From the NCBI GenBank assembly GCA_964389675.1, contig CAYMEV010000013.1, positions 1-64,000 on the forward strand: a stretch of 64,000 bases of DNA. Reading direction: 5' to 3'. This stretch comes from an uncultured Candidatus Sumerlaeota bacterium (GTDB lineage Bacteria > CAYMEV01). Position numbers and translations under genes: made by a program. Below the pieces are notes generated by a model, which worked only from the letters and a program-made list of their open reading frames with translations, ran no database searches and was not told where the DNA came from. Position 1 is the first letter of the stretch; every line of letters begins with the position of its first letter. Shown here piece by piece: positions 965 through 23,847 of the stretch.

Positions 965-1099
965 ATCTCTATACATTCCCATTAATTCTAAATTATGATG
1001 AAGATATTTCTCGCCTGTTTTTCAGGTATTATCTTTTGTACCGATATTTACAATATATTTGAATATATTAATTAAGAAAAATTCTATATATAATAAAAA

Positions 1100-1127
1100 T
1101 TGACATTTTAATATAAAATTATAAACT
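1100..1127 (+). promoter_or_regulatory. Putative sigma70 promoter
   Basis: TTGACA (1100-1105), 16-nt spacer, TAAACT (1122-1127) in an AT-rich intergenic region. Confidence 0.5.
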
Positions 1128-1228
1128 TTTCATATGCATATGATATCAATGGAATCTTCATGGTTAGCATTATATTCAGCATGGAAAACCAATATTTTCA
1201 TAAAAAAAAACAAAAAGGAGGTATTATC

Positions 1229-3355: not shown

Positions 3356-3370
3356 AGCATAGTTATAAAG

Positions 3371-3415
3371 AAAACAGTAAAGGGGCCGGCATGATACGGC
3401 CCCTTTACTGTTTTT
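3371..3415. terminator. Rho-independent terminator
   Basis: AAAACAGTAAAGGGGCCG / CGGCCCCTTTACTGTTTT 18-bp inverted repeat. Confidence 0.9.
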
Positions 3416-3502
3416 AAAGCCTCATATGACCTCCTCTGGATTTTGTTAAAACATCAGGATCATAGCCTTAAAAATATTAATAGTTTTATCTTAGAAAATG
3501 CC

Positions 3503-3531
3503 TTGACCTGTTTTCTCTAATGGTGTATCAT
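3503..3531 (+). promoter_or_regulatory. Putative sigma70 promoter
   Basis: TTGACC, 17-nt spacer, TATCAT. Confidence 0.55.
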
Positions 3532-3644
3532 GGATAATTATGATGCCATTAGTCTACATTATTATTGCATTTATTAATAATTATGCATCATTACCTGATC
3601 CAGAAAATAATTTTCTATTATAACCAAATAAGGAGGTATTTATT

Positions 3645-7940: not shown

Positions 7941-7958
7941 GCAGTTATAATATTATAT

Positions 7959-7991
7959 AAGGGCAGTGCAATGCACTGCCCTTTTTTTTTT
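7959..7991 (+). terminator. Rho-independent terminator
   Basis: AAGGGCAGTGC-AAT-GCACTGCCCTT followed by a T tract. Confidence 0.92.
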
Positions 7992-8042
7992 ACATTAAGA
8001 TAAATTTCTAAACTTATTTTTTTGTTATGATATAAAGGTAGT

Positions 8043-11000
8043 ATGAGAAGCCCAATGATAATCCACAACCGCTATGCAGTGGCAGAGAAGATAGGTGAGG
8101 GCGGTATGGGCAATGTATACAGGGTCAGGGACACCCTCCAGAATAATATTGATTTTGCCTTAAAAGCAGTCAAGAGATCTGTGTTTTCAAAGGGAGATCC
8201 AGATGTACTGCTGAGATTTAAGAAAGAATTTGATATAATGACCAGGCTGAAACACCCCAATCTTGTAAGAGTACACGATTTTCTGACAGACATCGAGGAA
8301 AATTCATATATTGTCATGGAATATGTTCCCGGAATTACCCTTGGAAAACTTCTTAAGAGGGAAAATACCATTGCCAGAGGCCAGGCAGTTGAGATCATTG
8401 TGCATATGCTAAGAGCTCTCGGGTTTATACATTCAAGGAATATAATATACCGTGATATAAAGCCGGATAATATTATAATAAGCATAAGCGGAAAAACTGC
8501 AAAGCTGTCAGATTTTGGCATATCAGACATTGGCTGCGCTGAAAGTGAAAGGATAAAGGGGACACTGCTGTACATGGCTCCTGAAGTGCTTGAGGGTGAT
8601 ATTACACCCCAGATCGATATCTTTTCACTCGGGATTGTCCTTTTGCAGATGACAACCGGTAAGCCCTTCTATAAGGGTGAAAACTATAATATGAGCACAA
8701 TAGTTGATATACTCAAGGACAGCAGTCATTATGAAAGCATTAGGAACAGGGAGTTTGCTGAAGTTGCTGATAAGGGCCTGAGGCATATAATTGAAAAGAT
8801 GACAGCTTTTGACAGGCATGAAAGATACCAGTCATGTGCAGAAGCTATAATGGCCATCAATAAGCATTTGTCCATGGATTATGAAATAGAGACAAAAGCC
8901 ACAAAGGAAAGCTATGTGCTTGGTGCGCCCTTTATTAACAGGCGCAGTGAGTATAAGGAACTTATCAGGCCTCTTGAAGCAGATAGCGTATTTTGTATAA
9001 AAATGCTGCGCGGATCACAGGGTTCAGGGAAGAGCAGGCTGCTTTCCGAGCTGAAAAAGCACTGCCAGCTGAATAATGTACTCTTTGTTGATGCCTGCTG
9101 CCCTAAGCAAGGGGAAAGGCCATTCGGTGTGTTTCTGCCTCTGCTTAAAAGGATATTCCTGCATATTGACAGAAAAAGTATATTAAAGTATGCCCCGTAT
9201 TTAAAGAGGATTATGCCGAAGGAGAAGATCTTTGACCAAATAAGCCTCCCCGGCGTTCAGGATTTCGAAAAAGAGATGACGGCAGTCTGTGATTCAATAG
9301 TAAGGATCATATTTGATTTTGTAAGCTCCCTGCAAAAACAGGCTGTCATAGCAATCGATGATATATCCTATGCTGACAGCTGGAGCATTAAGGTCCTATG
9401 TGCACTTATCAGGGAAGTGAGGACAGATGAGATCAGCAATATACCTGTTAAGGCTTTTTACTTCACAATATCAGATGAGGCAGGAATGGAAGATATCAGC
9501 CCTGAATGCGATATAAATGCAGAAGAGATTGCTCTAAAACCATTTACAGAGAAGGATGTAACAGAGTATATTGAATGCATTTTTGGTGAGAATAACCTTG
9601 ATGAGAGCCTGATAAGCGAGATTGATAGTATAAGGGAGCAGGCAGGAGGAAATCCCTATTTTCTGGAAGAGTATATTAAGACCCTTGTGCAGTCTGATAT
9701 TATACAAAGGAAAAGCAGAATGTGGTCGATCCAGAAGATTGATAGAAAATTTCATGGTCTGGACCATCTAAAAGCCATAATTGAACAAAGGATAGAAAAT
9801 ACCGGGTTTAACAAAGAACAGAAGGAAGCTGTATCCATGATATCCCTTATTGGGAAAGAGCTTTCCCTGGAGAATATCAGCTCCCTTCTGAGCAATTTCA
9901 GTACAGAATTTATGAACAGTTTCGTAAGGGAGCTTGAAAGGCTTGAATTCCTTACAGTTTTAAGGAGTGCAGACGAAATTAAGTACAGGGTATCCAATAA
10001 TCTTATAAGGCAGGCCTTTCTGAAGGATACTAAAGACTTAAGAAGCAGGCATGCTTATCTTGCAGAAAGGTTCGAAAATGTATTTGATGACAGTCTTGAA
10101 GATTTTTATGAAGAGATCGCGTATCATTTTTCTGAAGCAGGCAATTCAGGAAAGGCTGTTTTTTACCTGGAACTTGCGGGTTATAAAGCTTCAAGGAACT
10201 ATCATTACTCTGATTCAGTCAAATACTATGATAAGGCAATCTCATTGGAGAATCCGTACACAAAGAATTATTATAACCTTATCCTTAAGAAGACAGAAAC
10301 TATGGCACAGAATAACCAGTGGAAAGAATCATTTGCCATCCTTAGGTCAGTAGAGGGTAAAATCACTGATACTGAACAGCTGGGGCAGATGTACTACAAC
10401 CTCAGCCTTGACTATTTTCTAACAGCTGACTATCCGAGGGCAGCTGATGCAGCAGATAAATCGCTGAAATACAGGGTCCTTGCTTTCGGCCCGCTGGATA
10501 AAAAGGTAATAGAATCAATAACGCAGACCGCCTCTGCATATTATTACAGGGGGGAGTATAACAGTGCCCTTGCTGAATTCAGGAGAGCCCTTGACCTTCA
10601 GATTAGAGTTTCAGGTGAGGCTGATGTTTCTGCAGCAGAACTGTATAATGATATAGGTGTTATCTTCTGGTGCAAAGGGGATTATGACAATGCCCTTGAA
10701 AATATAAAAAAATCCCTGGATCTTAAGATAAAACTGCTTGGAGTAACAAGTCCGGATGTTTCAGTAGGATATAATAATCTTGGATTGATCTATTCAAAAA
10801 TGAATAAATACGAGAAGGCACTTGTCTATTATGAAAAAAGCATGGAAATTGCTGTGAGCCTTTTTGGCAGAAAACACCTCAGTGTTTCAACAGAACTTCA
10901 TAATATCGGCATGATCTATGAAAAAATGGCAGATTATGACCAAGCAATAAAGCTTTACAAGGAATCCATATCGATCAGGAAGCGTTATTATCATGAAAAC

Positions 11001-11573
11001 CACCCCGATATTGCAAATTCCTACCATAATATAGGCGGGATTTATGTCAGGACCAACAGAAATGAAAAGGGGCTGTATTATATTACAAAGGCCATGAACA
11101 TATGGCTTAAGTTTTATGGAGAGGAGCACCCCAATATTGCTTCATCCTATAACCATCTGGGATACCTGTACAGCAATCTCGGAAAGTACAGGGAAGCTTT
11201 TGATTACCATAACAAAGCTCTAAGTATAAGGCTGAAGGTATTTGAAGAAGGACATCAGGACATATCAGGATCATACTATAATCTTGCCGATACCTGCTTT
11301 AAGATGAAAGATTTCAGCAGGGCACTTTATTATTATGAGAAGGTGATGAATTATGAGTCCAATAATAAAAACAGGGATGAAAAATACTATATTAATATAA
11401 ATAAAAATATGGGGATCATATATAAAAATCTGGGGGACAGGGCAAATGCAGAAAAACACCTTAAAGAGGCACTTGATATATCCAGGTCTGTTTATGGAAA
11501 AATAAGCTCCAAAACTGAGGAAATAAATGATATAATCAAAGAACTGAAAAGAAAGGACCCTGCTGAAGGATGA
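8043..11573 (+). CDS. Hanks-type Ser/Thr kinase fused to a P-loop (AAA_16/STAND-like) ATPase and C-terminal TPR repeats
   Basis: GEGGMG, ALK, YRDIKPDN, DFG, APE; Walker A GSQGSGKS; Walker B IAIDD; GGNPYF motif; tandem TPRs of about 42 aa (HP.IA.SY.N.G). Confidence 0.85.
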   Translation: MRSPMIIHNRYAVAEKIGEGGMGNVYRVRDTLQNNIDFALKAVKRSVFSKGDPDVLLRFKKEFDIMTRLKHPNLVRVHDFLTDIEENSYIVMEYVPGITLGKLLKRENTIARGQAVEIIVHMLRALGFIHSRNIIYRDIKPDNIIISISGKTAKLSDFGISDIGCAESERIKGTLLYMAPEVLEGDITPQIDIFSLGIVLLQMTTGKPFYKGENYNMSTIVDILKDSSHYESIRNREFAEVADKGLRHIIEKMTAFDRHERYQSCAEAIMAINKHLSMDYEIETKATKESYVLGAPFINRRSEYKELIRPLEADSVFCIKMLRGSQGSGKSRLLSELKKHCQLNNVLFVDACCPKQGERPFGVFLPLLKRIFLHIDRKSILKYAPYLKRIMPKEKIFDQISLPGVQDFEKEMTAVCDSIVRIIFDFVSSLQKQAVIAIDDISYADSWSIKVLCALIREVRTDEISNIPVKAFYFTISDEAGMEDISPECDINAEEIALKPFTEKDVTEYIECIFGENNLDESLISEIDSIREQAGGNPYFLEEYIKTLVQSDIIQRKSRMWSIQKIDRKFHGLDHLKAIIEQRIENTGFNKEQKEAVSMISLIGKELSLENISSLLSNFSTEFMNSFVRELERLEFLTVLRSADEIKYRVSNNLIRQAFLKDTKDLRSRHAYLAERFENVFDDSLEDFYEEIAYHFSEAGNSGKAVFYLELAGYKASRNYHYSDSVKYYDKAISLENPYTKNYYNLILKKTETMAQNNQWKESFAILRSVEGKITDTEQLGQMYYNLSLDYFLTADYPRAADAADKSLKYRVLAFGPLDKKVIESITQTASAYYYRGEYNSALAEFRRALDLQIRVSGEADVSAAELYNDIGVIFWCKGDYDNALENIKKSLDLKIKLLGVTSPDVSVGYNNLGLIYSKMNKYEKALVYYEKSMEIAVSLFGRKHLSVSTELHNIGMIYEKMADYDQAIKLYKESISIRKRYYHENHPDIANSYHNIGGIYVRTNRNEKGLYYITKAMNIWLKFYGEEHPNIASSYNHLGYLYSNLGKYREAFDYHNKALSIRLKVFEEGHQDISGSYYNLADTCFKMKDFSRALYYYEKVMNYESNNKNRDEKYYININKNMGIIYKNLGDRANAEKHLKEALDISRSVYGKISSKTEEINDIIKELKRKDPAEG

Positions 11574-12982
11574 TTAAGAAAAAGAGATTCCCTGATACCC
11601 TTTCGATAATATTTGCCCTGATGGTTATCTTTGTGATACTTACCTGGACTGTCCCAGCCGGTGAATTTGAAAGAACGGAAGAAAACGGGAGGGAGGTCAT
11701 AGTTGCGGGCTCATACAAAAGGGTTGAAGCAAATCCTCAATCCATAGAATTCTTTACAGCGCCCATAAAGGGGTTTGTATCAGCTGCAGAGATTATTGCA
11801 TTTGTATTTATAGTAGGGGGGGTGTTTTCCATAATTAATATGACCGGGGCTGTAAATGCACTGATCTTCAGTATTATTAATATTACAGCAAAAAGACCGT
11901 CATTAAAGGGTCTTATAATACCATTGACAATGATACTCTTCAGTCTGGGAGGTGCTACTTTCGGCATGTCTGAAGAGACGCTGGTATTTATCATGATAAC
12001 GATACCTCTTGCTGTTTCCCTCGGGTACGATCCGATTGTAGGAGTTTCCATAGCTTTTGTGGGGGCTGGCCTGGGATTTGCAGGGGCTTTTCTCAATCCA
12101 TTCACTGTCGGCATTGCACAGGGGATAGCCGGCATAAGCCTTTTCAGCGGGCAGGAATACAGGCTGATAGTATGGTCTGTGCTGACCTTTATTGGAATAG
12201 CGTATGTATGCAGGTATGCCAGGAGAATTGAAAAAAAACCTGAAAAAAGCCTTGTAAAAGATATATCCTTTGACTGCAAGCTCTCCGGTGAAAAAAAAGA
12301 GGATATGAAGCTTACAAAAAGAAGGATGCTGGTCGTGATATCTCTGGTATTGGCGCTTTCAGCTATTATTCTGGGAGTTCAGGGCAAAGACCATATCATA
12401 TCAGGCATGTCCGGATGGTATATCGAAGAGATAAGCGCTGTTTTTCTGGGACTGGGTATTGTTTCTGCCATTATCTGCGGTTTTTCACCCGGGAGAACAG
12501 TCAGGGCATTTTCAGAAGGGGTCAGAGATATGGCAATGCCAGCTGTCATCATAGGGTTTGCGAGGAGCATCCTTATCATTGCAGAACAGGGAAGGATAAT
12601 TGATACGCTTCTCTATTATGCAGGTTATATCGGGGGAGGGGTGCATTCGGTGTTCAGTGTCCAGATAATGTTTATCCTGCAGACATTTATAAACTTTTTT
12701 ATTCCGTCAGGGTCAGGTCAGGCTGCCCTTACAATGCCCATAATGGCTCCCTTAAGCGATGCCCTTGGGTTTACAAGGCAGACTGCAGTGCTGGCATACC
12801 AGCTTGGGGACGGGATTACAAACATGATAATCCCGACCAGCGCTGTACTGATGGGTGTTTTGGAGATTGCCAGAATACCATATGATAAATGGTTCAGGTT
12901 CATTCTGCCCCTGATAATACTGCTTTCTGCAGCAGGCATGATAATGCTTGCTTTTCCTGCTGTAGTGTTTCAATGGAACTGA
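11570..12982 (+). CDS. yfcC: YfcC/DcuC-like C4-dicarboxylate or basic amino acid transporter
   Basis: LTWTVPAGEF, GMSEE, NPFTVGIAQGIA, FFIPSGSGQA, AYQLGDG; many TM segments; ATGA overlap with the kinase gene. Confidence 0.85.
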   Translation: MIKKKRFPDTLSIIFALMVIFVILTWTVPAGEFERTEENGREVIVAGSYKRVEANPQSIEFFTAPIKGFVSAAEIIAFVFIVGGVFSIINMTGAVNALIFSIINITAKRPSLKGLIIPLTMILFSLGGATFGMSEETLVFIMITIPLAVSLGYDPIVGVSIAFVGAGLGFAGAFLNPFTVGIAQGIAGISLFSGQEYRLIVWSVLTFIGIAYVCRYARRIEKKPEKSLVKDISFDCKLSGEKKEDMKLTKRRMLVVISLVLALSAIILGVQGKDHIISGMSGWYIEEISAVFLGLGIVSAIICGFSPGRTVRAFSEGVRDMAMPAVIIGFARSILIIAEQGRIIDTLLYYAGYIGGGVHSVFSVQIMFILQTFINFFIPSGSGQAALTMPIMAPLSDALGFTRQTAVLAYQLGDGITNMIIPTSAVLMGVLEIARIPYDKWFRFILPLIILLSAAGMIMLAFPAVVFQWN

Positions 12983-12992
12983 CAGAAGGCAG

Positions 12993-15158
12993 ATGATGGA
13001 AAAACTGCTTATTGATATTGCTATTAAGGGGCCATTTTTTAAGGGATTCACATATTATACGGATATAAGGTACAAAGAATGCATTTTCCCGGGACAGCTT
13101 GCAGAGGTGAGCTTCGGAAAAAGGATTGAGACTGGATATGTCATGGGCTTTTCCGGGAGTAAAACTGAAGACTATCCGGGCATAAAGCCAATTATAGATA
13201 TTGTAAACATCAGTCAGACATGCGATGATCATATTCTTTCAGTCATAAATTTCATAGCAGAATATTATCACTCCCCTCCAGGGGCAGTATATTCATTTGC
13301 TGTCTGCAATTATGAAAGAATACTAAGGATTGCAGCAAAAAAGGACAGCGGTCCCGCGGATAATTCCCTGAATACCCGGGAGGCTGAAATTCTCAGCTAT
13401 ATCAGGAGCAAAAAGAATACTGCATTATCTTCTCTGAAACACAGGCTTAAGGATTGCAGCATGCTTAAGCTTGCTCTGTCCCTGCTTTGGAAAAGGGGGT
13501 TTATTGATATTGTTTTTGATGATTGCAGGTCAGCAGAAATTGAAAGGAAAATGAAGGACTTCAGCCTCAGTGAAAAGCAGAATGCTGTATATAATGCTAT
13601 ATTTTCAGAACTCGAAAAGGGATTCAGTACGCACCTCATATACGGGATCACCGGCTCGGGGAAAACGTTTATATACCTAAGGCTGATACAGGATATTATA
13701 AAGGCAGGCAAACAGGCATTGATCCTTGTCCCTGAGATAGGCTTAAGCATACACCTGGAGAAGATGTTCCGGGAGTTCATTCCGGGAACAGAAATGCTGC
13801 ATTCTTCCGTGGGAAAGAGGCAGAAAAGGTATATACTGCAGAAGGCCAGGGACGGCAGGATAGACCTTATAATAGGCCCAAGGAGTGCTCTTTTCATACC
13901 ATTTCACAGGCTCGGCATAATCATTATTGATGAAGAGCATGACAAATCATACAAGCAGGAGAGCATTCCATGCTATAATGCCAGGGATGCAGGGATATTC
14001 AGGGCAAAAGCACAGGATGTGCCGATAGTGCTGGGGAGTGCTACGCCAAGTATTGAGTCCTATTACAATGCGAGGATAAAGAACAAGTACATGTTCCATG
14101 AACTTACTGAGAGATACGGGGAATCCAGGCTTCCTGAATTATTTCTTGTTGACCTGAAGGAGGAAAAGGCAAAGAAGAGGTCTACAATCATCAGCCAGCT
14201 TCTCCTTGAAAACCTGAAGGAGATGTTTGAAAAGGGGGACCAGGGGATACTCTTCATTAACAGGAGAGGGTTCTATTCAGCAATAATATGCCTGAAATGC
14301 GGTTCCAGCATAAGATGCACAAGATGTTCCGTGTCCATGTCATATCATCAGGAGATAGACAGGCTGGTATGCCATCAGTGCGGAAGGCAAAGGCGGATGC
14401 CAGACAGATGCCCCTACTGCGGAAGCGAAAAGCAATCCAGCTTCGGATTCGGGACAGAACATGTGGAAGAACTGATTAGATCATATATACCCGGGATCAG
14501 GATATTGAGGTTTGATTCGGACAATATCAGGCAGCGGGATAAGGACAAAAGGCTCTTTGAGTTTGGCATGCATGAATATGATATTATCGTAGGTACACAG
14601 ATGATAACCAAAGGATTTGATTTTCCGAAAGTAAACCTTGTAGGTGTGATACAGGCTGATGAAAGCCTTTATATGCCTGATTTCAGGGGGGCAGAAAGAA
14701 CATACCAGATCATCAACCAGGTCAGCGGAAGGTCAGGAAGAAGGAATAAGGTTGGCAGGGTCATTATACAGACATATCTTCCTGAACACTATTCAATACA
14801 GTACAGCCTGAAGAATGATTATTACGGTTTTGCAGAGAAGGAGCTTAAATCAAGGAAGAAATTCGGATACCCGCCTTACAGAAGACTGTGCATGATATCT
14901 TCTTCGGGCTATAAGAAGGAAAGGGTGCTTGACCTTATATCAAAGATCTATGAAAGGCTGTGCAGAGTGAAAACAGGGGATATCTCAATTATCGGCCCAG
15001 TTTCTGCATTTGTTGAAAAAAGAAAGAATATGTACCGATGGAACATACTCCTCCAGGGGAGCATAGGGCAGATAAACAGAATGCTTTCTGATATCTCGGA
15101 AATATACCTGTCCAACAGCTCAGCAGTGACTATAGATATGGACCCTTACACCTTTTAG
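12993..15158 (+). CDS. priA: Primosomal protein N' (replication restart helicase)
   Basis: GITGSGKT, LVPEI, IIDEEHD.SYKQ, GSATPS, four CxxC pairs, GTQMITKG. Confidence 0.97.
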   Translation: MMEKLLIDIAIKGPFFKGFTYYTDIRYKECIFPGQLAEVSFGKRIETGYVMGFSGSKTEDYPGIKPIIDIVNISQTCDDHILSVINFIAEYYHSPPGAVYSFAVCNYERILRIAAKKDSGPADNSLNTREAEILSYIRSKKNTALSSLKHRLKDCSMLKLALSLLWKRGFIDIVFDDCRSAEIERKMKDFSLSEKQNAVYNAIFSELEKGFSTHLIYGITGSGKTFIYLRLIQDIIKAGKQALILVPEIGLSIHLEKMFREFIPGTEMLHSSVGKRQKRYILQKARDGRIDLIIGPRSALFIPFHRLGIIIIDEEHDKSYKQESIPCYNARDAGIFRAKAQDVPIVLGSATPSIESYYNARIKNKYMFHELTERYGESRLPELFLVDLKEEKAKKRSTIISQLLLENLKEMFEKGDQGILFINRRGFYSAIICLKCGSSIRCTRCSVSMSYHQEIDRLVCHQCGRQRRMPDRCPYCGSEKQSSFGFGTEHVEELIRSYIPGIRILRFDSDNIRQRDKDKRLFEFGMHEYDIIVGTQMITKGFDFPKVNLVGVIQADESLYMPDFRGAERTYQIINQVSGRSGRRNKVGRVIIQTYLPEHYSIQYSLKNDYYGFAEKELKSRKKFGYPPYRRLCMISSSGYKKERVLDLISKIYERLCRVKTGDISIIGPVSAFVEKRKNMYRWNILLQGSIGQINRMLSDISEIYLSNSSAVTIDMDPYTF

Positions 15159-15169
15159 GATTGATTGGT

Positions 15170-16183
15170 TCAGTACTCGGAAATTATGGCCTTTATAAGT
15201 TCTATAAGGCTGAAGTAATCATCCTTTGATATTATAGAATTGGGTGAGTGCATGGCAAATGCGGGCAGTGCAAGGCCTATGCCGTCCGACTCCAGTTCAT
15301 AGCATAATTTGCCGAGTTCACCATTTCCGGCCCTTGATATCATGTCCTGATACTTAATACTGTTTTTCTCTGCAATCTCAATTATCCTTTTGCTGATCTG
15401 GGGGTTTGAAACATATGAATTATCCATATGAGCGATCACAACACCCTTGCCGATCTCTGCGCCGGTTGGCATTACAAAGGGAGCTAAAGTCCCCGGGCAT
15501 ATTTCAATATTGATAAAAAGATCCGGTTTCAGCTTATGCTCCCTGAAAGCTGACCCTATCTCCCTGTGAGGCCAGAATGTTGTTTCCTCTCTTGCTGAAA
15601 AAACGGCAACTGTCTTATTTGATGTTTTTTCAAGAAGATGGCTGGAGTGCATAGCAGATACAATCGCTGCAATGGCTGCCCTGGCGTCAAAAGCCTTTCC
15701 AAAGATCTTGCTTTCCCTGACTTCGACAGAATTTTTTGCCGAACCTGCTGAATATACAGGGACAAGCCTTTCTGCATCCTCTTTATTTGATACTCCTATA
15801 TCCACATAGTATGTCCGGTTCTTATCCTCTTTTCTGACTGTAAGGATCCCCGAAATATTGCCCGGATTAAATATGATCTTCTGATTATTGAAGTCATCAG
15901 AGATAACTGAAATAGGAAGGACCTCGATCAGGCCGTTATCAAGGTATCTTCTAGGCTTGATCCCAAGCTCGTCCATATGGCTTTGAAAGACTATGGTCCT
16001 GCCTGATTTGTTTTTATCTGATGGATTAAAGACAACAAGATTTTTATGGGGAGTGACATAATGGAAAAATGACTGCCCAAGTATCTGCTGTATTATGTCA
16101 AGAATGTCATCTTCGCAGGAGGAAGGACCGAATGCATCGCAAAGTGTCTTCAGGACTTTCATGTTAAAACTCTGTTCGTTCAT
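15170..16183 (-). CDS. M42 family (TET/endoglucanase-like) metallopeptidase, divergent
   Basis: HMDELG, GKAFD, REE and MHSP motifs; start moved to MNEQ behind a GAAGG RBS. Confidence 0.7.
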   Translation of the reverse strand: MNEQSFNMKVLKTLCDAFGPSSCEDDILDIIQQILGQSFFHYVTPHKNLVVFNPSDKNKSGRTIVFQSHMDELGIKPRRYLDNGLIEVLPISVISDDFNNQKIIFNPGNISGILTVRKEDKNRTYYVDIGVSNKEDAERLVPVYSAGSAKNSVEVRESKIFGKAFDARAAIAAIVSAMHSSHLLEKTSNKTVAVFSAREETTFWPHREIGSAFREHKLKPDLFINIEICPGTLAPFVMPTGAEIGKGVVIAHMDNSYVSNPQISKRIIEIAEKNSIKYQDMISRAGNGELGKLCYELESDGIGLALPAFAMHSPNSIISKDDYFSLIELIKAIISEY

Positions 16184-16347: not shown

Positions 16348-16375
16348 TTGAGAATGAAAAAAATGGGTTTATAAT
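16348..16375 (+). promoter_or_regulatory. Putative sigma70 promoter of the Rrf2 gene
   Basis: TTGAGA, 16-nt spacer, TATAAT. Confidence 0.6.
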
Positions 16376-16400: not shown

Positions 16401-16802
16401 ATGAAGCTTACTGTAAAATCAGAATATGCATGCCTTGCAATGATAGATATGGCTGAGAACTACGATAAGGGGTATATCAAGATAGGCGACATAAGTAAAA
16501 GGAAAGAAATACCAAAAAAATTCCTTGAGAGCATACTGCTGACCCTTAAGACTTCAGGCTACTGCATAAGCAAAAGGGGAGGAGATGGAGGCTATATGCT
16601 GGCAAAAAGCCCTGATAAAATAAGCCTGGCTGAAATTATGAGGATTATGGACGGTGCCCTGGCACCGGTTGAATCAGTCAGTATGTTCTTTTACAGGCAT
16701 ACACCGATTGAAAAGAACCCCAAGCTCAAGCTTATATTAAGGGAAATACGTGATTATATAGCACTTAAACTTGAAAATATAACATTTGCAGATTTAATTT
16801 GA
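16401..16802 (+). CDS. Rrf2 family transcriptional regulator, CymR-like (no C-terminal Fe-S Cys triad)
   Basis: MKLTVKSEYA, IPKKFLESIL, SKRGGDGGYMLAK.P..ISLAEI. Confidence 0.92.
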   Translation: MKLTVKSEYACLAMIDMAENYDKGYIKIGDISKRKEIPKKFLESILLTLKTSGYCISKRGGDGGYMLAKSPDKISLAEIMRIMDGALAPVESVSMFFYRHTPIEKNPKLKLILREIRDYIALKLENITFADLI

Positions 16803-16811
16803 TTTTTTTTA

Positions 16812-16851
16812 TTGACTTTATATATATTGTCTATAGATTTAGTAGAGAAAT
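16812..16851 (+). promoter_or_regulatory. Promoter overlapped by a putative Rrf2-type operator
   Basis: TTGACT (16812-16817), 16-nt spacer, TAGATT; imperfect palindrome TCTA-N9-TAGA (16830-16846) covers the -10 element. Confidence 0.55.
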
Positions 16852-16871
16852 GATGAAAAAGGAGATTTTGT

Positions 16872-17837
16872 ATGAAAAGATCTTTATTTATCCTGATTCC
16901 GATATTAATAATGTTTTATTTAACAGGCATATGCTGTAAGCCTTCAGAAAAGCAGTCAGAATCCGGAGGGCTGGAAGGCACAATCAGCATATCAGGTGCA
17001 TGGGCGCTTTATCCTCTTGCTGTCTCCTGGGCTGACCAGTTCAAGCAGCTGCACCCCGGCGTAAGGATAGAGATATCAGCAGGCGGAGCAGGGAAGGGAA
17101 TGGCAGATGTGCTTTCAGATCTTGTCGACCTTGCAATGGTATCCAGGGAAATATATCCGCAGGAAATTGAGCAGGGGGCATTTTATGTACCTGTAGCCAT
17201 TGACGCGGTAGTTCCTGTAATAAACGCAGAAAATCCAGTTATAGGCCTTGTAAAATCAAAGGGAATAAAGAGAGAAATATTTGAAAAAATATGGATACAG
17301 GGTGAAAGCCTTGACTGGGGCAATATATATGATGAAGCATCTGCAGGCAGGATAAATGTATATACCCGGTCAGATGCATGCGGAGCTGCTGCTACATTTG
17401 CAGCATTTATGGGTAAAAAGCAGGAGGACATGTTAGGAACCGGAATATTTGGAGATCCAGGTATGGTTACAGCTGTCAAGGATGACACTCTCGGCATCGG
17501 GTACAACAATATAAATTTTGTTTATGACAGAAATACTAAAAACCCTGTAGATGGTGTTTCAGTAATTCCAATAGACTTAAACGGAAACGGGATACTGGAT
17601 GAGAATGAGGATTTTTATGAAAACATAGACCTTATAGTCAAGGCAATCTCAGAGGGGAATTATCCTTCACCGCCGGCAAGGGAGCTCTATTTTGTCACAA
17701 AGGGGAAACCCCCGGAAGGGTTAGTAAAAGAATTTTTGGAATATGTGCTTTCCGAGGGACAGGCTCTTACATCTGAGGCAGGGTATGTGAATATATCCCA
17801 GGACAAGATTGATACAAGCCTTGATAAACTAAGATAA
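16872..17837 (+). CDS. pstS: PstS-family (PBP_like_2) substrate-binding lipoprotein with a non-canonical ligand site
   Basis: Lipoprotein-like N-terminus (TGICC); ISGAWALYP, GGAGKG, MVSRE, RSDACGA, YPSPPARELY; first gene of a pstCAB-like operon. Confidence 0.75.
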   Translation: MKRSLFILIPILIMFYLTGICCKPSEKQSESGGLEGTISISGAWALYPLAVSWADQFKQLHPGVRIEISAGGAGKGMADVLSDLVDLAMVSREIYPQEIEQGAFYVPVAIDAVVPVINAENPVIGLVKSKGIKREIFEKIWIQGESLDWGNIYDEASAGRINVYTRSDACGAAATFAAFMGKKQEDMLGTGIFGDPGMVTAVKDDTLGIGYNNINFVYDRNTKNPVDGVSVIPIDLNGNGILDENEDFYENIDLIVKAISEGNYPSPPARELYFVTKGKPPEGLVKEFLEYVLSEGQALTSEAGYVNISQDKIDTSLDKLR

Positions 17838-17847
17838 TCAGACATTT

Positions 17848-18738
17848 ATGAGAACCAGAAGAAAAAGAATAGACAATACTGCAAGAATTCTGATGGTTAT
17901 TACAACTGTTGCAGTAAATATTGTCCTGCTGTTCATAATATTCGGGCTGTTTTCAAAGTCCAGGCCCATCTTTGAACACCATAATATACTTAAGCTGGTA
18001 TTTTCTTCTGAATGGTTTCCTTTAAGAGGATGCTTCGGGCTTTTCAATTTTATTTTCGGGACATTTATTGTAACAGCCCTTTCCATAATTATAGCTGCTC
18101 CATTATGCATACTGACATCAATATACCTTTCAGAGTATGCTTCAAAGAGGATTCTTTACTGGGCGAAGCTTTTTATAGACCTTCTGGCCGGTATTCCTGC
18201 TGTTGTATATGGTGTCTGGGGGATACTCGTCATTGTTCCGGTCATAAGGGACTATATAGCCCCGTTCTTCAGCAGAACGACAACAGGATACAGCCTGCTG
18301 GCAGGAGGCATAGTGCTTTCAATAATGGTCTCTCCCATAATTATTTCTGTCCTTCTCGAGATCTTTGCATCAATAGAGGCTGAACTGAAAGAATCTTCCC
18401 TGGCACTGGGAGCAACAAAATGGCAGACAATAAAGTTCGTCATACTCAAAAAATCATTCAGCGGAATAATATCAGGTATAATCCTCGGTGTGTCAAGAGC
18501 ACTGGGAGGCACAATGGCAGTGCTTATGGTCACAGGCAATGTCGCAATAATACCAGAGAGCATATTTGAGCCGATATATACAATACCTTCTCTGATAGCC
18601 AATAATTACGGCGAAATGCTTTCAATACCCCTCTATGATTCAGCCCTTATGTTTGCAGGCTTTATTCTTCTGCTCATAATACTTGTCTTTAACATAGCCT
18701 CAAGGCTCATGCTTATGAAATATCACAGGATGACATGA
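17848..18738 (+). CDS. pstC: PstC-like ABC permease
   Basis: LLAGIPAVVYGVWG, SLALGATKWQT, SRALGGTMAV. Confidence 0.85.
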   Translation: MRTRRKRIDNTARILMVITTVAVNIVLLFIIFGLFSKSRPIFEHHNILKLVFSSEWFPLRGCFGLFNFIFGTFIVTALSIIIAAPLCILTSIYLSEYASKRILYWAKLFIDLLAGIPAVVYGVWGILVIVPVIRDYIAPFFSRTTTGYSLLAGGIVLSIMVSPIIISVLLEIFASIEAELKESSLALGATKWQTIKFVILKKSFSGIISGIILGVSRALGGTMAVLMVTGNVAIIPESIFEPIYTIPSLIANNYGEMLSIPLYDSALMFAGFILLLIILVFNIASRLMLMKYHRMT

Positions 18739-18741
18739 TAA

Positions 18742-19593
18742 ATGGACAAAAGATCAATTGAAGAAGGTATTTTCAAAATACTTATGAAGATCAGCACAGG
18801 GCTTATCTTTTTAGCGCTTCTGGCTATTATAGGTACCATACTGTACAGAGGGATAGGCTCTTTGAGCTTTTCTATGATAACACAGCTTCCAAAGGGGGGG
18901 TATTACCTTGGCAAAGAGGGAGGAATACTGAATGCCATCATAGGAAGCCTGATGATAGGGGGATTCTCTACATTGCTTGCTCTCATGCTGGCTCTTCCGA
19001 TAACCTTTTATATAAATATATACAGAAGGGGAAAATCAAGGTTTGCATATTATACAAGGTTCTCACTTGATGTGCTTACGGGTGTCCCCAGCATTGTCTA
19101 TGGCCTTTACGGTTTTATAATACTGAGATTTCTCGGTATAAGGGCATCCCTTCTCGGCGGGGTTTTTGCCGTAGCACTGCTTATCCTTCCCCTCATGTGC
19201 AGGACTATTGACGAGGTTATAAGGCTTGTGCCAAAGGATCTTATGGATACTGCATACAGCCTGGGCTCCACGAAATTTGAAACTATCATCCATGTAGTGG
19301 TAAAGCAGATTTCCGGCGGAATCATCATGGCTGTAATGATTGCTTTCGGCAGGGGAATAGGCGATGCAGCTTCAGTGCTTTTTACGGCCGGGTTTTCTGA
19401 TTATATTCCGACATCTTTATTTCAGCCTGTTGCAACACTGCCTCTGGCCATATTCTTCCAGCTCCAGAGCCCTTTGCCTGAGGTTCAGGAGAGGGCTTAT
19501 GCATCAGCATTCATACTTACTGCTATCATACTGGTAATTAGCGTGGTGATAAGGCTGATCGGAAAGAAATTCTCAAAACATGTTATAAGGTAA
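18742..19593 (+). CDS. pstA: PstA-like ABC permease
   Basis: GGILNAIIGS, GVPSIVYGLYG, AYSLGSTKFET, GRGIGDAA. Confidence 0.85.
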   Translation: MDKRSIEEGIFKILMKISTGLIFLALLAIIGTILYRGIGSLSFSMITQLPKGGYYLGKEGGILNAIIGSLMIGGFSTLLALMLALPITFYINIYRRGKSRFAYYTRFSLDVLTGVPSIVYGLYGFIILRFLGIRASLLGGVFAVALLILPLMCRTIDEVIRLVPKDLMDTAYSLGSTKFETIIHVVVKQISGGIIMAVMIAFGRGIGDAASVLFTAGFSDYIPTSLFQPVATLPLAIFFQLQSPLPEVQERAYASAFILTAIILVISVVIRLIGKKFSKHVIR

Positions 19594-19603
19594 AGGTGGA
19601 AAA

Positions 19604-20365
19604 ATGACAGAACATCCGTTTATTGAAATCTCGAATCTTAATCTGTATATAGGAAATGACAGGATACTTGAGGATATAAGCATAAAGATACCTGGCAACA
19701 GGATAACGGCAATAATAGGACCTTCAGGCTGCGGGAAGACAAGCCTGCTGAAGTGTTTCAACAGGCTTGTTGATACAATTGAGGGTTCCCGGGTTACCGG
19801 CAGAATACTGGTGGATAATGAAGACATATTTGACAGTAAAGCAGATATATCTGAGATAAGAAGGAAAATGGGGCTTCTTCTGCAGAAGCCGTATCCTCTG
19901 CCAATGTCAATATTTGATAATGTTGCATACGGGCCAAAGATCAATGGGATGAAAGACAAAAAAAGGCTGAGTGAGATAGTGGAGCACCAGTTGAAGCAGG
20001 TTGGCTTGTGGGAAGAGGTAAAAGGGAAACTGCAATCACCTGCCGCAGCGCTTTCTGTAGGCCAGCAGCAGAGATTATGCCTTGCAAGGGGCCTCGCTGT
20101 CGAACCGGAGATAATCCTGGCAGATGAATCCACATCAGCTCTCGATCCTATCTCAAGCGCACGTATAGAATCAAGGTTCGCAGCACTGAAAGAAAAATAT
20201 ACAATTATAATGGTTACTCATATACTCAGGCAGGCAAAAAGGCTCGCGGATTATGTGATCTTCATGTATTACGGGAAAGCCCTGGAAGCTGGCCCTGCAA
20301 AAGAGATCTTCGAAAATCCCAGAAATGAAATCACAAGGCAGTATATAAACGGAGTCATAAGCTGA
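19604..20365 (+). CDS. pstB: PstB-like ABC ATPase
   Basis: GPSGCGKT, QKPYP.PMSIFDNVAYG, LSVGQQQRLC, DESTSALDPIS, VTH. Confidence 0.9.
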   Translation: MTEHPFIEISNLNLYIGNDRILEDISIKIPGNRITAIIGPSGCGKTSLLKCFNRLVDTIEGSRVTGRILVDNEDIFDSKADISEIRRKMGLLLQKPYPLPMSIFDNVAYGPKINGMKDKKRLSEIVEHQLKQVGLWEEVKGKLQSPAAALSVGQQQRLCLARGLAVEPEIILADESTSALDPISSARIESRFAALKEKYTIIMVTHILRQAKRLADYVIFMYYGKALEAGPAKEIFENPRNEITRQYINGVIS

Positions 20366-20477: not shown

Positions 20478-21971
20478 TTATGGAATTTTTGAGTTTTTTG
20501 ACCTGCCTCTGTAAAATCTTCTTCTGGTACCCTTTTTATCACCGATGCCCTTATTTATCCTGTAGCCGGGTGAAAGGAGGCCGACCTTTCTGAAATAGAC
20601 CATAAGGACCAGTGTGATTACCGCCATCAGTATGAGTACGAATGGATATCCGTAAACCCAGTAAAGCTCAGGCATATTCCACCAGGAGCGGATAATAAAA
20701 GCAGGATCCCTGAATGCCTGGAAGTTCATCCCATAGATGCCGGCAATTAGTGTCAAAGGAAGAAAAATTACGGAAAATACCGTAAGTACCCGCATGGCTT
20801 CATTTATCCTGAAGGTTGCTTTTTCACTCAGGGTGCTTGCAAGAGCACGAATATTATTTATCTCTTCCCCAAGTGTGCGGATTGACCTTTCAGTCCTTGA
20901 AAGGCGCTGGTCCAGGTTGTCAAAAAGGCCCCTGATATACCCGTATTGCTCGATATTGAAGTTTTCTGCTGTTTTGGCTATATCACTGCTTTTGATCCAT
21001 GAATCTATTGCTTCTTTATCCCTTGTCAGGCTTTCCGGAACAGATATAAGAAGTACCTGCTCTGCGCTGAGTTCGCTCAGCCGGAGCTGGACATGCATAA
21101 TTTCTTCACTGTCCTGCCTGCGTATTATTTTTTCCTGGTCATTAAGGCAGTCCCAGGACCAGGAAATCCATCCCTGAAGATTGGATGTGAACATGATTAT
21201 ACAGTTCATCATGCTGTAGCCCACCAGGAAGTTCTCCAGCGGTGCTGAATCAGCAGATATCAGCAGCATGCCGTGCTCTCCTGTTATTATGAATTCATCT
21301 TTGCATAATGTATTGGCACTGATAATGTCAAGATGGCCAAGAACCTGGGTAAGCTCAGCAGAATAGCCATCATCAGAAAGGGCATCGTTCATGCTTAAGC
21401 TTTTCCCTCCGCTATTTTCAAGTTTTTCCGCAATTATCACCAGAGACTTGTCACGGTGAAGGCTCTCGTGGCAGAAGACAATATCCAGCAATTTACGCTG
21501 ATAGGAATTGAACAGGGTATTCATGACCTTGCTGGAATCAACGATTAGGTCAGCAATTATGTGGGAGATATCATCAAGGCTCTGCCTTCCCTCAAGTTCA
21601 ATACCATAGCTTATCTTCCCGTCACTGGATATTTCAATTCCAATAATCTCACTCTGCAGGTCGCCTCCCGTCTCAGCAATGTCAACATTGCTTTCCAGCC
21701 TGATGTATTCCATGTGTTTATAATCAATGACACGCATGCTGATCTCCGTTTTCCCCGACTCTATAACTGCAGCATTAGGAAGCTGGTCTATCTCTTTTGT
21801 TATGTAAAAATTCCTGCCTGAAGATGTTCCCTTAACACCAGGCTTGTATGCGGATTGATGACAGCGAAGCTTTTTCTGAAGAGTGTAAATAAAATGAGCG
21901 CCTATGGGTACCCATTCTGTCAGGACTATCCTGACTTTCCCGTTTAAAAATGCCAGGTTTTTGCTATCCAT
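20478..21971 (-). CDS. CorA-family divalent cation transporter with an atypical, long N-terminal region
   Basis: C-terminal INEAMRVLT...PLTLIAGIYGMNF...MPEL.W.YGY with two TM helices; start at MDSK behind GGAGG. Confidence 0.8.
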   Translation of the reverse strand: MDSKNLAFLNGKVRIVLTEWVPIGAHFIYTLQKKLRCHQSAYKPGVKGTSSGRNFYITKEIDQLPNAAVIESGKTEISMRVIDYKHMEYIRLESNVDIAETGGDLQSEIIGIEISSDGKISYGIELEGRQSLDDISHIIADLIVDSSKVMNTLFNSYQRKLLDIVFCHESLHRDKSLVIIAEKLENSGGKSLSMNDALSDDGYSAELTQVLGHLDIISANTLCKDEFIITGEHGMLLISADSAPLENFLVGYSMMNCIIMFTSNLQGWISWSWDCLNDQEKIIRRQDSEEIMHVQLRLSELSAEQVLLISVPESLTRDKEAIDSWIKSSDIAKTAENFNIEQYGYIRGLFDNLDQRLSRTERSIRTLGEEINNIRALASTLSEKATFRINEAMRVLTVFSVIFLPLTLIAGIYGMNFQAFRDPAFIIRSWWNMPELYWVYGYPFVLILMAVITLVLMVYFRKVGLLSPGYRINKGIGDKKGTRRRFYRGRSKNSKIP

Positions 21972-22599
21972 TATGTGACCCTCCAAAAAAATAGGGTTTG
22001 CATTTATATTCAACACTGCCTATTGAGAAGAAATCCTCTATGATAAATTCTTCCATATGGCCAGCCTTGAACCAGAGGTCATTCTCAAGATGACTGCCTT
22101 TTGAATAACAGTTGCAGGCTTTGGTAATAATCAGGTGAACTGACGGGTAATCCTTGCGCCCGACAGCAAAATCCATCAGCTTGCCGCATTTTGGACATTT
22201 TAGAATTTTGTCCAGTTTTTTTAATTCATCTTCTGATAGGATCTTTAATTTCTGAATAAGGTCCATACCCTTGTCTGATATACGTGTTGCCGTCATTGAT
22301 GCATAATAACGGGTATTTAATATTATGCGCTCTATCAGTTTATTCCTGAAAAGTACCTCCGAATCACGGACGGCTTCCTGGCTGACCAGAGCGAACATCT
22401 TTATGCCCCGGAAGTCTATTATGCTTGGTGCGAGGTCGTAATTCTCAAAAAGGCCAGCTCTAACGCATAAATGAACTATAATGCTGATATTAAAGTCTTT
22501 CAGCCAGGGCCTCGCATTGCAACCGGTATAAAGGCTGACCAGAAATAGAAGCCTTAAGGCATCTCTTGAAAAGGGATATTCCTGCTGGTCTGATTTCAT
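21964..22599 (-). CDS. Uncharacterised cytoplasmic protein with a Cys-rich, Zn-ribbon-like C-terminus; translationally coupled to the CorA-like gene
   Basis: AAAGGAG RBS before MKSDQ (22599); CPKC...CNC; stop overlaps the CorA start. Confidence 0.75.
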   Translation of the reverse strand: MKSDQQEYPFSRDALRLLFLVSLYTGCNARPWLKDFNISIIVHLCVRAGLFENYDLAPSIIDFRGIKMFALVSQEAVRDSEVLFRNKLIERIILNTRYYASMTATRISDKGMDLIQKLKILSEDELKKLDKILKCPKCGKLMDFAVGRKDYPSVHLIITKACNCYSKGSHLENDLWFKAGHMEEFIIEDFFSIGSVEYKCKPYFFGGSHNG

Positions 22600-22652: not shown

Positions 22653-22895
22653 TTATATATGCTTTATCTTTTCCTGTTTGATATAGGGCTGTATTTTCCT
22701 TAATGAAGGATTGGGACTGCCTTTTATCAGGATTGCCATAATCATCAGAACAGCAAATATTATGAATAGAATGGAGTAGAAGCCGAGTTTTTTTCTTTTT
22801 CCCTTCAGGTAAAATCCGCAATAGGGGCAGTTCCGCTGATCGCCAAGTATATAACCCCTGCACTCAGGGCAGATCTTTGACAGCTGATCATTCAT
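22653..22895 (-). CDS. Small Zn-ribbon membrane protein
   Basis: CPEC...CPYC followed by a basic patch and one TM helix; overlaps the upstream stop. Confidence 0.7.
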   Translation of the reverse strand: MNDQLSKICPECRGYILGDQRNCPYCGFYLKGKRKKLGFYSILFIIFAVLMIMAILIKGSPNPSLRKIQPYIKQEKIKHI

Positions 22896-23847
22896 CAGTC
22901 AGCTCCTTAACCATGAACATCTGCGTTTCTACTTCATCAAAGCCCTCTTTCTGATACCATGAACAGGCATTCCTGTTACTGGATGCAACATCAAGCAAAA
23001 TTCTTCTTTTACCCAGTTTCTGGGTAAATTCATATATGTTTTCAATCAGTATTTTTCCCAGGCCCCTTTTCTGAAAAGCATTATCAACGGCAATTGCAAG
23101 AAGATAGACCGTATCATCGTTCATGTATCTGCTGTGATAGTATTTCCTAAAATATTCATTATCATAAAAAAGCCAGTAGAAGCCAATTATCTTATCCTTA
23201 TGCTCCAGTACTCTTGCGGTATTGTTTTTTCTGAAGAGCATGTCAAAATCAGAGTCCCTCAATCCCTGCTTCTCTACCAGCCCCTTCTGGTTCAGCGTCG
23301 AGTCGTTTATCATTTTTATAGGCTTTATATCTTCCTTCCTGCAGTTCCTGATTATGAAAAGCCCTTCCTTCAGTTTCATCTCTTTTGAATAATCATCCTG
23401 CCCGTTTCTGAACCTTCCTTTTGCTGCTTCATTTGCAAGCCTGTCCACCATTATGTTAAGCGGGTCATCACTGTGAGCTTTGACCTTTACCCACATAATG
23501 TCGTGCTTTTTGGCCAGGGCTGAAAGCTTTTCCCATAGATCCCTGTTCTTAACAGGATTTCCTGTGCTGTTCCGGTAGCTGTTTTTTTCCCAGCTGTAGA
23601 GCCATTTCTTCATGAATGCATTATAAATATACTCGCTGTCAGTGTGAATGGTAAGGGGAAGAGGCTTTTTGATCGACTCAAGAGCTTTAATGACAGCTGT
23701 GAGCTCCATTCTGTTGTTCGTGGTTTCTTTCTCGCTTCCTGATGCATTCAGCTCCTTATCCCTGTATTCCAGATGATAGGCCCAGCCTCCCGGCCCCGGG
23801 TTTTTAAGGCATGAACCGTCAGTATAGATTATTATTCTATCTTCCAT
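22888..23847 (-). CDS. rnhA: Ribonuclease HI fused to a C-terminal GNAT acetyltransferase
   Basis: YTDGSC..NPGPGGW, TTNNRMEL, TDSEY, WVKVKAH, VDRLA; then IAVDNAFQKRGLGK and N..A..WY.K.GF. Confidence 0.88.
   Translation of the reverse strand: MEDRIIIYTDGSCLKNPGPGGWAYHLEYRDKELNASGSEKETTNNRMELTAVIKALESIKKPLPLTIHTDSEYIYNAFMKKWLYSWEKNSYRNSTGNPVKNRDLWEKLSALAKKHDIMWVKVKAHSDDPLNIMVDRLANEAAKGRFRNGQDDYSKEMKLKEGLFIIRNCRKEDIKPIKMINDSTLNQKGLVEKQGLRDSDFDMLFRKNNTARVLEHKDKIIGFYWLFYDNEYFRKYYHSRYMNDDTVYLLAIAVDNAFQKRGLGKILIENIYEFTQKLGKRRILLDVASSNRNACSWYQKEGFDEVETQMFMVKELTDE

Follow-up and report, generated by a model that had tools for sequence, protein, structure and literature searches.

The window analysed here is a stretch of 64,000 nucleotides from an uncultured Candidatus Sumerlaeota bacterium (contig CAYMEV010000013.1), whose genome assembly comprises 3.57 Mb in 58 contigs and is 93.8% complete. 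Positions 16401-20365 hold five open reading frames (ORFs), all on the + strand, encoding an Rrf2 protein, a PstS-like substrate-binding protein (SBP), a PstC-like and a PstA-like permease and a PstB-like ATPase, in other words a Pst-like ATP-binding cassette (ABC) importer preceded by a regulator gene. An original prediction, made from the sequence, had described a PstSCAB-like locus with unusual motifs at this place, and all five ORFs and the motifs it listed are present. The features of the locus are the following:

16348..16375, + strand: sigma-70-like promoter match TTGAGA-16-TATAAT upstream of the Rrf2 gene (11/12 in a consensus scan; pattern match only)
16401..16802, + strand: Rrf2-family transcriptional regulator, 133 aa, without the three Fe-S cysteines (PF02082, TIGR00738)
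16812..16839, + strand: sigma-70-like promoter match TTGACT-16-TAGATT upstream of the SBP gene (9/12 in a consensus scan; overlaps the candidate operator; pattern match only)
16830..16846, strand not applicable: candidate Rrf2 operator, a 17-bp inverted repeat TCTA-N9-TAGA (from locus comparison; presumed binding site)
16872..17837, + strand: PstS-fold SBP, 321 aa; probable lipoprotein signal; anion pocket rewired; proposed sulfate receptor (PF12849, AlphaFold2)
17848..18738, + strand: PstC-like permease, 296 aa (TIGR02138)
18742..19593, + strand: PstA-like permease, 283 aa (TIGR00974)
19604..20365, + strand: PstB-like ATPase, 253 aa (TIGR00972)

A canonical phosphate locus was found in the same genome, outside the window on contig C11 (L011, positions 1-16001). 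It is made of phoB, phoR, a porin gene, pstS, pstC, pstA, pstB and phoU, and the encoded motifs are canonical (GATFPYP, GSGGG, RSDGSGTT, RALGET, RISGET and LSGGQ). The window proteins share 24% (receptor), 38% (PstC), 30% (PstA) and 44% (PstB) identity with these paralogues. Because C11 carries this pho-pst locus with canonical motifs, the window locus is a second, diverged system, distinct from the Pho-regulated phosphate importer. The original prediction had suggested looking for such a separate pst-phoU locus; it had also stated that the window locus itself has no phoU or phoBR, and neither was found there in the ORF list or by Pfam scan.

The window SBP scored 116.6 bits on PF12849 (Pfam) and remained below both PstS cut-offs of NCBIfam (TIGR02136, 119.2 vs 206.6 bits; TIGR00975, 59.3 vs 205 bits); TIGR00971 (Sbp/CysP) gave no match to the receptor. 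The same separation was seen in 50 family-bearing genomes, representing 50 of the 80 related loci described below (32 non-Bacteroidota and 18 Bacteroidota), in which family members reached 107-138 bits on TIGR02136 and separate canonical PstS proteins 218-302 bits. The PstS-type periplasmic binding-protein fold was confirmed for the predicted structure, an AlphaFold2 model made from an alignment of 94 rows (mean predicted local distance difference test score, pLDDT, of 93.7). Foldseek comparison with the PDB returned phosphate-binding proteins at every named rank to 46 among the matches listed, all at 24% identity or less, with the PstS type first and the DING type from rank 41 (best E-value 4.7e-24; TM-scores up to 0.72 when query-normalised and 0.90 when target-normalised). 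Among solved structures, those of S-type receptors come nearest (4JWO, 4GD5/4Q8R and others). Neither Sbp nor ModA was among the Foldseek matches listed, and no convergence at the level of the fold was seen.

The anion pocket was mapped by an ungapped, high-confidence profile alignment to PDB 4Q8R, read against the published ligand list of C. perfringens PBP-1. This receptor is described as contacting phosphate through the backbone NH of Thr12, Ser13, Ser41, Gly130 and Thr131, through hydroxyl ligands on Ser11, Thr12, Ser41, Ser59, Ser129 and Thr131, and through Arg125 (PMC5381212). Replaced in the window SBP are Ser11 (by Ala43), Thr12 (Trp44), Ser13 (Ala45), Ser41 (Ala73), Ser129 (Cys170) and Thr131 (Ala172), and three of the nine ligand positions are kept (Ser59 as Ser91, Arg125 as Arg166 and Gly130 as Gly171). 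By alignment, five of the six hydroxyl ligands of PBP-1 are replaced. Alignments to the C11 proteins and to solved PstS agree on which window residues have changed, which confirms the claim that the phosphate-recognition residues are replaced and the Arg kept; the lost hydroxyl ligands were not seen to be supplied from other aligned positions, an alternative that had been raised with that claim. In S-type receptors, according to the proposal of a 2026 study of SphX, the HPO4(2-) proton is taken up by two Ser/Thr residues that an Asp-Arg pair activates; in SphX these are Thr17 (equivalent to PBP-1 Ser13) and Thr148 (PBP-1 Thr131). Phosphate binding is reported there to be abolished in Thr17Ala and strongly reduced in Thr148Ala (PMC13614923). 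Both proposed acceptor positions are invariant Ala in a 20-sequence alignment of the window family. The combination of hydroxyl ligands and HPO4(2-) proton acceptor that marks a PstS pocket was, by alignment, not found in the window SBP.

Asp56 had also been listed among the phosphate ligands of E. coli PstS. The residue of the window receptor aligned with it is a Ser followed by an Arg (Ser91-Arg92). A Ser at this position is not diagnostic because canonical S-type PstS share the same Ser-Arg, and we rejected Ser91-Arg92 as a derived replacement of Asp56. S-type receptors without the classical Asp are described as still binding phosphate (PMC5381212), which favours the view that the window locus is still a phosphate importer, a second Pst of lower affinity or different regulation that binds phosphate in an unusual way. 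Its Pst fold and family, the phosphate-binding proteins at all named Foldseek ranks to 46, the retention of Arg166, Asp168 and Ser91 and a PstC-like permease above its equivalog cut-off point in the same direction. Against this stand the loss of five of six hydroxyl ligands and of both proposed proton acceptors, one of which is enough to abolish binding when changed singly in SphX (Thr17Ala; PMC13614923), and we regard a phosphate importer as very unlikely.

The window receptor carries its changes in the motifs S41-G-A-W-A-L-Y-P48, A70-G-G-A-G-K-G76 and T165-R-S-D-A-C-G-A-A173. Across 20 aligned homologues from several phyla, which are 50-65% identical to the window SBP, S-G-A-W-A-L-Y-P, A-G-G-A-G-K-G, V-S-R and T-R-S-D-x-C-G-A-A were invariant or close to it, as were the pocket changes themselves; these changes do not reflect chance drift. 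Helices in the SBP model begin at residues 47, 73 and 171. We infer that the groups left in the pocket are donors, namely backbone NH at three helix N-termini, Ser91, Arg166 and the aromatic NH newly provided by Trp44; the pocket would be donor-dominated because both proposed proton-acceptor positions are Ala. The ligands of the classical sulfate-binding protein, according to Pflugrath and Quiocho, are said to be five backbone NH groups, one Ser and one Trp. A pocket offering mainly hydrogen-bond donors would likewise suit a fully ionised tetrahedral anion.

Profile scores of the other subunits were mixed. The PstC-like permease passed its cut-off (TIGR02138, 269 vs 196 bits), and the PstA-like permease (TIGR00974, 178.5 vs 193.45 bits) and the PstB-like ATPase (TIGR00972, 328 vs 343.2 bits) failed theirs; NCBIfam models for CysT and CysW gave 21-49 bits on the window permeases against cut-offs of 246 to 415. 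The corresponding window motifs are RALGGT (PstC-like), RGIGDA (PstA-like) and LSVGQ with ADEST (PstB-like). We counted these signatures in family members from the 80 loci that had at least 45% identity and at least 80% of the query length. In PstA, R-x-I-G-D-A replaces R-x-x-G-E-T (Asp in 61/61, Ala in 60/61), and LS[I/V/L]GQ is the PstB signature in 53 of 57 members, with Gly kept at this place in 3 others; all 57 have an intact Walker A and Walker B Asp-Glu. PstC retains its Glu in 58 of 59 members, in contrast to the window RALGGT. The predicted coordination of changes in three subunits is therefore family-wide for PstA and PstB and does not extend to PstC: we rejected the Glu-to-Gly change as part of it, and by these counts it is a peculiarity of the window lineage, not a family trait.

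The Gly for Glu in the window PstC, LSVGQ for LSGGQ in PstB and the scores of PstA and PstB below cut-off could also be expected of a decaying system, or of one with a non-transport role such as a receptor acting as a sensor. We consider this scarcely credible. All four transporter genes in the window are intact, with no stops or frameshifts; related loci keep the same gene order at 46-85% identity across phyla; and the ATPase retains Walker A and the Walker B Asp-Glu throughout the family, in which LS[I/V/L]GQ is itself conserved.

Gene neighbourhoods were compared in the 80 related loci, taken with flanks of at most 8 kb in either direction; the gene order SBP, PstC, PstA, PstB is conserved among them. 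Clustering and a scan of cluster representatives identified as recurrent neighbours PAPS_reduct proteins (CysD, CysH), a GTP_EFTU protein (CysN), NIR_SIR with TusA, as well as ThiF, JAB, a HemC/TP_methylase/HemD fusion, ALAD, Porin_O_P, an alginate-export-like porin and a LuxR regulator. Genes for molybdenum cofactor, selenium-specific genes and tungsten genes were absent from the annotated recurrent neighbour clusters. Counts were made by tblastn (E <=1e-6, at least 40% of the query aligned). PhoU and PhoR were each found in 0/80 loci and a PhoB-like regulator in 2/80, whereas CysD, CysN, CysH or sulfite reductase was present in 21/80 loci (18 when only the 50 loci of 12 kb or longer are counted); this was the tabulation of neighbours that the prediction had called for. 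The loci with sulfur genes belong to Bacteroidota, an Ignavibacteriales genome, a betaproteobacterium and two ANME-1-type archaea (anaerobic methanotrophs). Porin_O_P was found in 25/80 loci and the other porin in 11/80.

The most complete arrangement was seen in the cultured Dysgonomonas capnocytophagoides DSM 22835 (L057), as one run of genes on the same strand with short or overlapping gaps. The run begins with the PstB-like gene, a NirA-type sulfite reductase with TusA, MoeB/ThiF, JAB, a porin-like gene, the SBP gene at L057 8001-8957, the PstC-like and the PstA-like gene, and continues with HemC/uroporphyrinogen methyltransferase/HemD, HemB, CysD, CysN and CysH. The last three scored well above their cut-offs (CysD 455 vs 195, CysN 559 vs 336 and CysH 278 vs 154 bits). 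This run is a complete assimilatory sulfate-reduction operon, and the Pst-like system is its only transporter. The finding of the transporter inside sulfate-reduction operons, like the absence of PhoU from all 80 loci, counts further against phosphate as the substrate.

Two other types of locus in this sample are recorded here for their gene content. In the ANME-1-type loci L041 (11499-12317) and L083, a gene of 272-274 aa with a PAPS-reductase domain and a gene of about 404 aa directly follow the transporter. An 'unknown APS/PAPS reductase' of ANME-1b is mentioned as seen in metaproteomes (PMC6286981). In a betaproteobacterial metagenome-assembled genome (G027, contig C6, about 629000-630300; L071), the transporter-adjacent PAPS_reduct genes are in pieces with in-frame TGA stops, which may be either an assembly artefact or decay.

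Co-occurrence across genomes was consistent with these neighbourhoods. Among the 50 family-bearing genomes, a strong PAPS_reduct match (E <1e-20) was found in 30 and Sat in 19; the union of the two, taken as a marker of ATP sulfurylase, covers 46/50, a figure that depends on this stricter E-value and for which no background was measured, because PF01507 at its own cut-off was positive in 14/14 control genomes. A separate canonical PstS above the NCBIfam cut-off was present in 41 of the 50, a further point against phosphate import by the family, and no other PstS above cut-off was found in the remaining 9, which would favour it (completeness of these genomes unstated). A profile search found the receptor family in 68 of 201 sampled Bacteroidales genomes. 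CysD (NF003587) was detected in 61/68 of these and in 78/133 genomes without the family (odds ratio 6.1, Fisher p 4e-6, in a test that ignores genome kinship), and SulP showed no association with CysD in the same 201 genomes (odds ratio 0.69, p 0.28). Among the 139 CysD-positive Bacteroidales, 37 had the family only, 35 SulP only, 24 both and 43 neither.

Collectively, these data make it likely that the window locus encodes a Pst-derived importer of sulfate or of a close sulfur oxyanion such as thiosulfate, in agreement with the prediction of a Pst paralogue for a non-phosphate ligand, probably a sulfur oxyanion. The substrate is inferred from gene content, motif changes, conservation, neighbourhoods and co-occurrences, and the assignment is supported by independent lines: the loss of ligands and acceptors, their conserved replacement, operon context in four distant lineages, co-occurrence with sulfate-activation genes and the canonical paralogue in the same genomes. 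The importer would descend from the S-type branch of phosphate-specific Pst, with a changed substrate. Its receptor, probably lipid-anchored, keeps the PstS fold and, by alignment, Arg166 with its partner Asp168, Ser91 and Gly171, and is assumed to keep the backbone NH donors at the helix ends; the five hydroxyl ligands have given way to Ala43, Trp44, Ala73, Cys170 and Ala172, and the proposed acceptor Ser to Ala45. The loaded receptor would then dock on the PstC-like/PstA-like heterodimer, and the PstB-like ATPase would drive import.

Another oxyanion (thiosulfate, sulfite, selenate, molybdate or tungstate) might instead be the main substrate, with sulfate a side substrate at most. The invariant Cys170 and the aromatic residue at 44 suggest a softer and larger pocket than sulfate requires, and the sulfite reductase encoded nearby carries a fused TusA domain. 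In some Bacteroidales genomes (G075, G134, G145 and G198) the receptor gene is present twice in tandem, with a family-profile score of about 230-290 bits for the second copy, an arrangement that recalls the E. coli Sbp/CysP sulfate/thiosulfate pair. Oxyanion transporters are moreover described as often promiscuous (PMC6286981). The recurrent neighbours, however, are CysD/CysN, whose substrate is sulfate, CysH, sulfite reductase and siroheme synthesis; CysDN is not needed for thiosulfate use, and none of the annotated recurrent neighbour clusters contains molybdenum-cofactor, selenium-specific or tungsten genes. We hold another oxyanion as the main substrate to be unlikely.

In the source genome itself, CysD and a CysN/CysC fusion are encoded next to a gene for a polysaccharide repeat-unit polymerase. 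The gene directly beside phoU (L011 5666-6301, - strand) encodes 211 aa with a sulfotransferase domain (PF00685, 44.8 bits), and its product is a possible consumer of 3'-phosphoadenosine 5'-phosphosulfate (PAPS). Profile searches of this genome gave no match for NIR_SIR, Sat, Sbp/CysP or SulP, and its only PAPS_reduct match was CysD. Since neither sulfite reductase nor CysH was found, imported sulfate would feed CysD and CysN/CysC to yield PAPS for sulfation and would not be reduced to sulfide. Among importers of the Sbp/CysP and SulP types and the window system, the Pst-like system is the only candidate for sulfate import in this genome; DASS, CysZ, TSUP and PiT-type carriers were not part of the search.

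The Rrf2 protein encoded upstream of the transporter scored above the superfamily cut-offs (TIGR00738, 106.5 vs 73.3 bits; PF02082, 97.3 vs 30 bits) and far below the equivalog cut-offs of CymR (NF047409, 73.8 vs 195 bits) and IscR (68 vs 207 bits). The description of this gene as CymR-like is thus right in that the protein lacks Fe-S cysteines like CymR, and wrong if taken to mean membership of that family. Of the 73 related loci with a called SBP ORF, 25 have an Rrf2 gene no more than three genes away from it. Three Cys in the Fe-S-type spacing C-x8-C-x5-C are present in 20 of 28 transporter-linked Rrf2 homologues, and the window protein has S92, T101 and P107 at the aligned positions; the same operon therefore pairs with cluster-bearing and with cluster-less regulators. 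The Cys-less proteins are that of the window and seven others, mostly from planctomycetes, plus an Omnitrophota genome and a close relative of the window.

The candidate operator, TCTA-N9-TAGA, ends 25 nt upstream of the SBP start codon and overlaps the promoter-like match at 16812..16839. Exact copies beside the Rrf2 gene were found in 9 of 25 Rrf2-bearing loci from several phyla, as against 1 of 48 loci without Rrf2, and the 1.01 Mb of all 80 loci contain 14 sites. The source genome has 19 sites, only 3 of them intergenic; the two besides that of the window locus lie upstream of a kinase/phosphatase gene and near a GDSL lipase gene. We propose from these comparisons that TCTA-N9-TAGA is the Rrf2 operator, and that binding of the Rrf2 protein to this 17-bp repeat, over the promoter-like site before the receptor gene, probably keeps the operon repressed.

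A number of observations weigh against sulfate import, in addition to the absence of a measured background for the ATP-sulfurylase marker and of a kinship correction in the Fisher test. The window transporter locus adjoins no sulfur gene, and 59 of the 80 related loci have none inside the fetched flanks. In the source genome, sulfite reductase and CysH are missing from the profile matches, so that the use of PAPS for sulfation would be a second step of reasoning added to the first, and the genome scan did not find the candidate operator at cysDN. At the level of the proteins, Arg166, Asp168 and Ser91 are kept, as is by alignment the Asp-Arg pair (D111, R270), and the PstC-like permease is above its equivalog cut-off; residual phosphate binding is therefore possible. 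The pocket geometry comes from alignments, and sulfate does not explain the invariant Cys170, for which thiosulfate or another soft ligand may account. Across genomes, neither ATP-sulfurylase marker was found in 4/50 family-bearing genomes, one of them of 1 Mb, 9/50 have no separate canonical PstS, and 7/68 family-bearing Bacteroidales have no CysD match. Mutual exclusion of SulP and the family in CysD-positive Bacteroidales had been expected and was not seen.

Compared with known systems, the window locus is closest to S-type PstS with PstCAB (PBP-1 4Q8R, Synechocystis SphX, TIGR02136), with which it shares the fold, the Ser-Arg after the VDxGM strand, Arg-x-Asp and the four-gene SBP-PstC-PstA-PstB architecture. 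It differs from these in its missing hydroxyl ligands and acceptors, a TIGR02136 score of about half the cut-off, the absence of a PhoU/PhoBR link, Asp-Ala for Glu-Thr in PstA and LS[I/V/L]GQ in PstB. The subunits are also homologous to those of E. coli PstSCAB-PhoU (D-type PstS, TIGR00975), to which the C11 system is comparable; the window receptor is 24% identical to that of C11 and, unlike the E. coli D-type, lacks an Asp56-type low-barrier hydrogen-bond acceptor, and the neighbouring Rrf2 gene would regulate the locus in place of PhoBR and PhoU. The window system thus fails the defining features of a phosphate-specific system. With Sbp/CysP-CysUWA (TC 3.A.1.6; TIGR00971) it would share the substrate, the linkage with cysDN and cysH, and recognition through backbone NH, one Ser hydroxyl and a Trp indole. 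It is not homologous to that system at the family level and keeps a charged pocket Arg. It would work like Sbp/CysP-CysUWA without being a member of that family, and by descent it is of the Pst lineage. The regulator resembles CymR and IscR as a winged-helix protein of the Rrf2 family, without cluster cysteines as in CymR, while most of its homologues have three Cys as in IscR; it differs from both in its low equivalog scores, and TCTA-N9-TAGA was derived from the present locus comparison, not from a known regulon.

A precedent for recruitment of a phosphate-transporter lineage for sulfate is Bacillus subtilis CysP, described as a PiT-family sulfate permease in which residues critical for phosphate are lost (PMC5840216). 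In contrast to the window system, CysP is a secondary carrier of unrelated fold and not a binding-protein-dependent ABC importer. The same review of sulfate transporters names SulP, CysP/PiT and DASS, and "PstS" and "Pst" occur 0 times in its searched text (PMC5840216). In the text of a study of sulfur metabolism in ANME archaea, only "putative sulfate transporters" are named (PMC6286981), and DASS/SulP-type carriers are proposed for M. thermolithotrophicus (PMC10322725). A full-text literature search, whose scope excluded supplements and subscription journals, found no description of a Pst-type sulfate transporter, and an earlier description is possible.

The receptor family is widespread. 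A word-indexed search with the window SBP gave 7997 matches, the best 120 of which share at least 50% identity; their sources include Phycisphaerae, Acidobacteria, Fidelibacterota, Bacteroidota and others, and databases name such proteins phosphate-binding, as the prediction had anticipated for automatic annotation. A motif-pattern scan of one genome per species found at least 599 stretches, at least 531 of which encode a relative. The source phylum is a very sparsely sampled lineage, with 2 species genomes in the GTDB set used, and both have the system.

A phmmer search returned 196 clusters at 50% identity (E <=1e-30). Of the 150 proteins listed, the 99 with lengths of 280-380 aa were aligned, and in this alignment the core signature grades via other signatures into the canonical S-T-T, G-S-G, S-G-T. 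FastTree analysis of 89 rows, made after dropping 12 that looked partial or frameshifted, placed three canonical S-type rows just outside an 85-row group containing the family (support 90), and in this tree the core family did not come out as a single clade. On this tree the label of zero hydroxyl ligands requires 13 changes, a number as low in only 6 of 500 shuffles.

On balance, and with less assurance than for the window locus itself, we lean towards the wider view that these proteins represent an unrecognised family of prokaryotic sulfate importers, derived from S-type Pst through loss of the hydroxyl ligands and proton acceptors of the pocket. Such importers would be the sulfate entry route in a third of the sampled Bacteroidales and in many anaerobes (planctomycetes, Aminicenantes, Clostridia and ANME archaea), under dedicated Rrf2/TCTA-N9-TAGA control and annotated as phosphate transporters. 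Sulfur assimilation and sulfation both begin with the entry of sulfate. If correct, this view would supply the missing importer in genomes, the source genome included, where CysDN or Sat is present without a known one, and would correct a systematic mis-annotation by which phosphate uptake is over-called and sulfate uptake under-called in thousands of genomes. It would also provide a natural case of a receptor switching between isosteric tetrahedral oxyanions by removal of proton acceptors, which bears on phosphate/sulfate discrimination.

A wider PstS-derived radiation surrounds the core family (proteins P0121-P0270). In one group the ligand positions are occupied by A-Y-A, T, S-R, S and A and a Cys pair is conserved (GxCN, LCR), and in another a Leu replaces the pocket Arg. 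These variant pocket groups may hold further, as yet unassigned anion specificities, as would be expected if the window receptor has itself changed its ligand.

Other genes in the window were noted for their domain composition. A CorA-like protein of 512 aa is encoded at 20478-22016 (- strand); its CorA match is confined to residues 314-477, and the N-terminal 300 residues have no Pfam match. The 319-aa ORF at 22888-23847 (- strand) fuses an RNase H domain (residues 4-142) to a GNAT acetyltransferase domain (197-303). At 8043-11573 (+ strand), the domains of a Ser/Thr kinase and of an AAA_16 ATPase are joined with numerous TPR repeats in one protein of 1176 aa, and the flanking ORFs at 1160-3355 and 3645-7940 encode MAM domains.

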